Assembly: GCF_003334355.1 (NCBI RefSeq)
Contig: NZ_QOWP01000027.1
From: Escherichia coli
GTDB lineage: Bacteria > Pseudomonadota > Gammaproteobacteria > Enterobacterales > Enterobacteriaceae
Strand: one strand, 5' to 3'
DNA: 54,484 nucleotides
The position numbers and the translations under genes were made by a program. The notes beneath the pieces are model-generated. The model made no database searches and was not told where the DNA came from. It worked only from the letters and a program-made list of their open reading frames with translations. Below, piece by piece: positions 53,999 to 54,484 of the stretch (position 1 is the stretch's first letter; the number at the start of each line of letters is the position of its first letter).

Positions 53999-54300
53999 AT
54001 GACGTTACCGAGTGGACACCCGAAGAGCAGATTGATCAAAAAATTTGCCGCACTAGGCCCGTATATTCGTGAAGGTAAGTGCGAAGATAATCGATTCTTT
54101 TTCGATTGTCTGGCTGTATGCGTCAACGTGAAACCGGCACCGGAAGTGCGTGAGTTCTGGGGCTGGTGGATGGAGCTTGAAGCGCAGGAATCCCGTTTTA
54201 CCTACAGTTACCAGTTTGGTCTGTTCGATAAAGCAGGCGACTGGAAGAGTGTTCCGGTAAAAGACACTGAAGTGGTTGAACGACTGGAGCACACCCTGCG
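53999..54300 (+). pseudogene. crl: crl (sigma-S assembly factor), 3'-truncated by IS10 insertion
   Basis: Crl N-terminal 100 residues ([46 protein letters not shown]…VERLEHTLR) then immediate stop supplied by IS10 terminal sequence; intact Crl continues about 33 residues further. Confidence 0.85.
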
Positions 54301-54484
54301 CTGATGAATCCCCTAATGATTTTGGTAAAAATCATTAAGTTAAGGTGGATACACATCTTGTCATATGATCAAATGGTTTCGCGAAAAATCAATAATCAGA
54401 CAACAAGATGTGCGAACTCGATATTTTACACGACTCTCTTTACCAATTCTGCCCCGAATTACACTTAAAACGACTCAACAGCTT
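54301..54484 (+). mobile_element. IS10 (IS4 family) outside end with 5' part of transposase gene; continues beyond window
   Basis: ctgatgaatcccctaatgattttggtaaaaatcattaagttaaggtggatacacatcttgtcatatgatc matches IS10/Tn10 terminal sequence; from 54408 atgtgcgaactcgatattttacacgac… encodes MCELDILHDSLYQFCPELHLKRLNSL, the IS10 transposase N-terminus. Confidence 0.85.

Follow-up and report, generated by a model that had tools for sequence, protein, structure and literature searches.

How crl came to be cut short in this strain, and by what, is the question raised by the last few hundred bases of the window, the whole 54,484-nt stretch of Escherichia coli DNA analysed here. The first-pass annotation held that IS10 interrupts the gene. 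This reading is supported as correct by a junction at position 54301, by identity to IS10-Right at 184 of 184 bases and by a sister lineage in which the same site is empty. The event behind it is very likely a recent cut-and-paste insertion of an IS10-Right-type element into crl, at a site that has been used repeatedly.

The junction between crl and IS10

In the window, crl is preceded by gpt (52147–52605) and frsA (52697–53941). Native crl sequence occupies positions 53999–54300 (302 nt), and the outside end of IS10 starts at 54301; comparison with the intact gene identifies the last crl base, 54300, as crl nt 302 and 54301 as the first base of IS10. Up to the junction the sequence reads CACACCCTGCG, which is followed in the intact crl of strain PCN061 by TGAGTTTCAC. 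In the shorter form, the intact gene of PCN061 and of the sister lineage L040 continues with TGAGTTT after CACACCCTGCG. The window instead reads CACACCCTGCG and then CTGATGAATCCCC, or in longer form CACACCCTGCG and then CTGATGAATCCCCTAATG. The truncated open reading frame (53999–54304, plus strand) encodes Crl residues 1–101 and is closed by TGA, with bases 54301–54304 contributed by IS10. Codon 101 is a hybrid, CG from crl and C from IS10, which retains arginine, and the stop codon corresponds to IS10 bp 2–4. The crl frame had first been read as ending after codon 100; its actual end is codon 101, the third base of which comes from IS10. The truncated product, as encoded on an identical Logan contig, matches the Crl family of Pfam (PF07417). 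The nine bases that abut the element, CACCCTGCG (54292–54300, plus strand; crl nt 294–302), are the left copy of the expected 9-bp target-site duplication, and the same sequence is found duplicated around an IS10 in a K-12 contig (L023).

Beyond the junction, positions 54301–54484 (plus strand) correspond to bp 1–184 of the outside end of IS10-Right. They are identical at 184 of 184 bases to IS10-Right of Tn10 on plasmid R100 (NC_002134) and differ from IS10-Left at six positions. NCBI names the element ISVsa5 (IS4 family), and in R100 it is annotated as "IS4-like element ISVsa5 family"; 2132 plasmid records match the end with at least 80% coverage. The break in crl had been attributed to a canonical IS10 outside end, and the 23-base terminal inverted repeat CTGATGAATCCCCTAATGATTTT at 54301–54323 (plus strand), identical to that of the IS10R outside end, bears this out: it occurs once in the window and in none of 100 shuffles. 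Further in lies AATCATTAAGTTA (54330–54342, plus strand; IS10 bp 30–42), which has one mismatch to the IHF consensus WATCAANNNNTTR and is presumably where IHF binds the outside end. This end has one GATC (Dam) site, located by its pattern at 54367–54370 (IS10 bp 67–70), which presumably takes part in regulating the pIN promoter. The antisense repressor of transposase translation, RNA-OUT, is encoded on the minus strand at 54346–54415, where Rfam model RF00240 is matched over its full length (98.8 bits, E = 2e-21; the gathering score is 41). The transposase N-terminus, noted earlier as running off the window, starts at ATG 54408 (IS10 bp 108); its codons 1–25 (54408–54484, plus strand) read MCELDILHDSLYQFCPELHLKRLNS and are identical to those of IS10R. 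The full frame has 402 aa in the same register as annotated in R100 and DH5alpha, which places 377 codons beyond the window. A promoter and terminator scan of 53900–54484 found none and gave no support for pIN or pOUT. A 54-aa open reading frame (MNPLMILVK...) at 54304–54468 (plus strand), in another frame of the IS10 outside end, is most likely spurious. Judged by its sequence, that is, by the terminal repeat, RNA-OUT, the transposase start and the identity to IS10R, assignment of the element as an IS10-Right-type insertion is supported.

Lineage and the empty site

The 4 kb flanking the junction are nearly identical to many phylogroup-A genomes, and the flank is 98–99% identical to NEB 5-alpha. 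About 35 kb of the window (10945–46298) are missing from K-12 and PCN061. This segment holds an intact Flag-2 lateral flagellar cluster, with full-length FlhA (697 aa), FliF, FlgE, FlgK, FliD and MotA; at the Flag-2 locus, K-12 and PCN061 have lfhA′ and lafU remnants only. Codon 17 of crl (54047–54049, plus strand) is GCC (Ala) in the window and ACC (Thr) in nearly all other E. coli. The T17A allele is rare, with full-length Crl carrying it in eight public contigs, among them L040. The non-K-12 flank, the Flag-2 cluster and the T17A allele together rule out K-12 or DH5alpha as the source of the window.

The comparison with crl alleles of related strains, which the first-pass annotation had proposed, led to L040 (GCA_012531255.1), a sister with intact crl(T17A) and an empty site. 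Leading up to the junction, 6302 of 6302 bases agree with the window, and past it L040 runs on into intact crl, phoE, proB and proA. Since an otherwise identical sister has an intact gene, the insertion is recent, and since that intact gene carries T17A, the substitution predates the insertion. An independent Logan contig (SRR3951466, L002) contains the same junction on the same T17A background, with 100% identity over 6329 bases, so the junction is not an artefact of one assembly. At its other end, the window starts with a remnant of an ISAs1-like transposase (positions 1–81) upstream of yafV. The window as a whole looks like a complete short-read contig bounded by repeats, the ISAs1-like remnant on one side and IS10 on the other.

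The same site in other E. coli

The break in crl recurs at the same base in many other sequences. Crl 1–101 of the wild-type form (T17, E29) was found in 659 indexed blocks and on 492 public contigs, and with T17 and E29 these do not derive from DH5alpha, which carries E29K. Ten further contigs with differing neighbourhoods (L013–L022) break at the identical crl base. The junction is formed by an IS10R-type outside end in three of them (L014, L020 and L022), by an IS10L-type outside end in five (L015, L016, L017, L021 and, as an L/R hybrid, L013) and by an IS10 inside end in two (L018 and L019). The hybrid outside end of L013 (3303–3426) is of IS10L type at bp 24–47, but at bp 83 and 107 it is of IS10R type; natural IS10 copies thus seem to undergo recombination or gene conversion with one another. 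Measured from the junction, the crl haplotypes of the ten contigs differ at 36, 51, 93, 123 and 147 bp. Spread of one original insertion by recombination, considered as an explanation for the shared breakpoint, is very unlikely because the haplotypes differ within 36–150 bp of it, and the IS10 ends differ as well. The cut after residue 101 is shared by a divergent crl allele (…DWTSVRIKDAE…; P0040, 10 contigs), and annotated C-terminal Crl fragments that start at T99, L100 or R101 come in two allelic forms. In L023–L025, an outside end in the opposite orientation is fused to crl′ as a 54-aa open reading frame. Partial Crl proteins of 108 and 75 aa were considered as further insertion sites and rejected; their contigs end in native crl and contain no IS bases.

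For a solitary IS10 in the orientation of the window, the predicted marker is an inside end that fuses an ATG in frame to the remainder of crl, giving a 41-aa open reading frame (MRGSLSTLREFHEK). Searches with the 41-aa and 54-aa hybrid frames returned DH5alpha-type contigs, a solo insertion in K-12 and unrelated backgrounds, and no right-hand junction from the T17A lineage. Outside the DH5alpha family, IS10 occupies the crl site in none of about 5387 complete RefSeq E. coli genomes, so all natural examples are contig ends in draft assemblies. Literature searches on crl with IS10, Tn10 or ISVsa5, on NEB 5-alpha with IS10 and on crl of natural isolates returned no description of the site.

In laboratory and natural strains alike, the position between crl nt 302 and 303 is a recurrent target of IS10/Tn10, joined to outside as well as inside ends. 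The core IS10 target consensus, NGCTNAGCN, was examined as the cause and rejected: CACCCTGCG agrees with it at three of its six specified positions, fewer than 13 other crl 9-mers, which agree at four. The consensus is a preference and not a requirement, so the assignment to IS10 stands despite this score. Recurrence may be driven by target preference, by selection for loss of crl or by both. We consider it more likely than not that CACCCTGCG is a strong natural hot spot for IS10/Tn10, hit independently in many lineages and in several laboratory strains despite its poor match to the consensus.

IS10 at crl in DH5alpha and related laboratory strains

The 41-aa frame that joins the inside end to crl′ is present in 125 blocks of the public collection. 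Most contigs that carry it have the order proA proB phoE′ / IS10 / ′crl ′phoE / IS10 / crl′ frsA gpt, which contains four junctions. At the first, phoE′ meets the outside end of IS10L, with GGCGTTGTA adjoining the element; at the second, the inside end of IS10L adjoins ′crl, which begins CACCCTGCG-TGAGTTT; at the third, ′phoE meets the outside end of IS10R, with TACAACGCC adjoining it; and at the fourth, the inside end of IS10R adjoins CGCAGGGTG of crl(1–101). Thus in DH5alpha and NEB 5-alpha, each inside end borders CACCCTGCG and each outside end borders GGCGTTGTA. At the phoE site of DH5alpha, both flanks adjoin outside ends, and at the crl site both adjoin inside ends. The copies of each 9-bp duplication are separated and inverted relative to one another, and the two IS10 elements lie in direct orientation. 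A Tn10-promoted inversion is expected to leave such a pattern when a Tn10 in phoE attacks crl, about 0.85 kb away, with its inside ends and loses its tet segment. The crl–phoE region of DH5alpha has the structure expected of such an inversion. One example spans positions 4330–8501 of L004, and further examples are L009 and L010 (DH5alpha and NEB 5-alpha). The arrangement was found in 39 complete genomes, all of them DH5alpha, NEB 5-alpha or derivatives; a record labelled "TOP10" (CP080620) was left out, its region being a string of repeat fragments. The truncated Crl of the DH5alpha family carries E29K and is found in 277 contigs.

A K-12 strain with E29K provides a solo insertion at the same site, on the 4.58-Mb contig L023. 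Here a 1329-bp IS10R, with one difference from the R100 copy, lies in the orientation opposite to that in the window and is flanked on both sides by a perfect CACCCTGCG duplication, and phoE is intact. A metagenome contig (L006; ENA ERZ21883450 NODE_302) has, at 3543–7220, intact crl, ′phoE, IS10, ′crl and intact phoE, and thus resembles a tandem duplication. The simplest explanations are a chimera between DH5alpha and a resident E. coli or the integration of a circle through homologous recombination.

What lies beyond the window

From the one element end that is visible, we infer both the structure past the window and the target duplication in the source strain. Very likely, cut-and-paste transposition placed an IS10-Right-type element between nt 302 and 303 of crl, either as a solitary IS10 or as one arm, IS10R, of an entire Tn10. 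The outside end of the element faces the 5′ part of crl and its transposase reads away from the gene. The first four IS10 bases (C-TGA) complete Arg101 and stop translation, leaving Crl 1–101 as the only possible product. Past the element, the remaining 32 crl codons should follow a second CACCCTGCG. The insertion is recent, in a lineage with otherwise intact crl(T17A), and at a repeatedly used site.

An IS10-Right-type outside end fits both a solitary IS10 and Tn10, so the window itself cannot decide between the two. That a whole Tn10 (~9.1 kb, with tetR and tetA(B)) lies in crl with its IS10-Right arm beside the 5′ part of the gene has, in our estimate, a chance of a little under one half, and a solitary IS10R is rated equal to it or slightly below. 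With a whole Tn10, inactivation of crl would be linked to tetracycline resistance. The junction is an outside end of IS10R type, as Tn10 requires, even though neither a tet gene nor a second end is visible in the window. The point at which the window stops is also informative. The last difference between IS10L and IS10R lies at bp 107, and the window ends 184 bp into IS10, which is 107 + 77; a final k-mer size of 77 is common in short-read assemblers, and for other contigs at the crl site the sequence breaks off 77 or 47 + 77 bp into IS10. A stop at 107 + 77 is expected if a single R-type outside end is present here and another IS10 copy differs at bp 107, as IS10L does. This arithmetic presupposes a complete contig and a particular assembler k, however, and a solo IS10R here with an IS10L-like copy elsewhere would yield the same figure. 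The other contigs at the crl site also bear on the choice, since half of them carry IS10L-type outside ends. IS10L is poorly mobile alone (PMC11148124), and its ends at the crl site therefore point to insertions of whole Tn10. Against this stands the solo IS10R documented at the same site in L023.

Two other readings deny a simple insertion. The junction could be one breakpoint of a larger IS10-mediated inversion or deletion, with the 3′ fragment of crl not directly behind the element. Such a rearrangement has occurred at the very same nucleotide in DH5alpha, where the inversion has the order crl(1–101) / inside end IS10R outside end / inverted ′phoE–crl′ / inside end IS10L outside end / phoE′. 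Inversions and deletions promoted by Tn10, however, join inside ends to the new target, whereas crl in the window adjoins an outside end, the product of primary IS10/Tn10 transposition, and we regard a rearrangement as improbable. The junction could also be an assembly chimera or contamination, for instance cloning-strain reads joined to a wild crl: the window terminates within a repeat, public data contain many DH5alpha sequences that have IS10 at this point in crl (the 277 contigs), and at least one metagenome contig, L006, resembles a chimera of DH5alpha with a resident strain. But the DH5alpha junction has an inside end rather than an outside end and a crl with E29K and T17, the window has a non-K-12 flank (98–99% identical) with the Flag-2 cluster, and the identical junction on the identical T17A background appears in the independent Logan assembly. 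A chimeric origin is thus extremely improbable, and a primary insertion of an IS10-Right-type element, alone or within Tn10, is the reading we adopt.

Consequences for Crl

Full-length Crl has ~133 aa, and the allele in the window is truncated to residues 1–101. Structures of Crl have been solved (6KJ6, 6OMF, 2MZ8, 4Q11 and 3RPJ). In the cryo-EM structure of the E. coli protein, sigma-S is contacted by P21, Y22, C37, L38, C41, F53, F76 and W82, and R51, in the 41–53 loop, is also listed as a contact (PMC6917491). All of these residues lie within the retained part. A single-sequence AlphaFold model of Crl, of low confidence (mean pLDDT 62) and used solely to place the C-terminal helix, has a long helix at residues ~90–113. 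On this model, the truncation would remove the second half of the predicted helix together with the tail, and a loss of function by misfolding or instability is plausible. Loss or weakening of Crl function, with lower sigma-S activity (curli, stress genes), is accordingly a plausible prediction; with every known sigma-S contact residue still present, loss of function is unproven. The insertion has no obvious polar effect. The neighbouring gene phoE is convergent to crl, and transcription of RNA-OUT, hence also its promoter, is directed at the 5′ part of crl, with no downstream gene in that direction.

Significance and comparison with known systems

For the source strain, the insertion means that crl is very probably inactive or weakened, with predicted lower expression of curli and of RpoS-dependent stress genes, and that a tetracycline-resistance transposon possibly lies within the gene. 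Annotators should expect the 101-aa "partial Crl" as a recurrent allele, given its presence in DH5alpha and in hundreds of contigs. The site may serve as a natural test case for IS10 target choice beyond the GCTNAGC core, and for how often mobile elements tune down sigma-S activity. If the hot spot is real, it would point to an unrecognised determinant of IS10 target choice, and to a parallel, possibly adaptive, attenuation of the sigma-S regulon that is sometimes linked to tetracycline resistance.

Knockout of crl by IS10 is an ordinary, already known kind of event, and the finding leaves the current understanding of IS10 or Crl unchanged. Knockouts of crl mediated by insertion sequences are well known in laboratory strains, by IS1 in MG1655 and by IS10 in DH5alpha. 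What is added here is the proof by an empty site, the retention of the sigma-S interface and the exact base, which is a recurrent IS10 target shared with DH5alpha. Among 5405 complete genomes, crl is split in 128, mostly laboratory strains, and the K-12 derivative RP437 gives a split crl match.

The crl::IS1 allele of E. coli K-12 MG1655 (PMC11148124) resembles the allele in the window in being a knockout of crl by an insertion sequence, and differs in the element, IS1. A second parallel concerns the sigma-S regulon. An IS10 inside end adjoins or lies within rpoS in the complete genomes PT62 (NZ_CP090448.1, ~1025599), LP5-1 (NZ_CP101866.1) and E272 (NZ_CM173936.1, ~2851871); in these natural isolates the regulon is likewise hit by IS10, but through another gene. 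In MG1655, the IS1 is presumably inserted early in crl. The element itself is most directly compared with IS10-Right of R100, with which the window copy shares the terminal repeat, the IHF-like site, GATC, RNA-OUT and the transposase start in a common register. The R100 copy, however, lies on a plasmid within Tn10, whereas the copy in the window is chromosomal, in crl, with bp 1–184 of 1329 visible.

The closest likeness is to DH5alpha and NEB 5-alpha, in which crl is broken at the same base, with CACCCTGCG as the target and a stop after Crl residue 101; the IS10 of DH5alpha is known to be active (PMC4021028). The DH5alpha arrangement differs in having an inside end at crl, in an inversion driven by a phoE Tn10, in its K-12 background and in crl E29K. 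The window, in contrast, has an outside end at crl in a non-K-12, Flag-2-positive chromosome with crl T17A.
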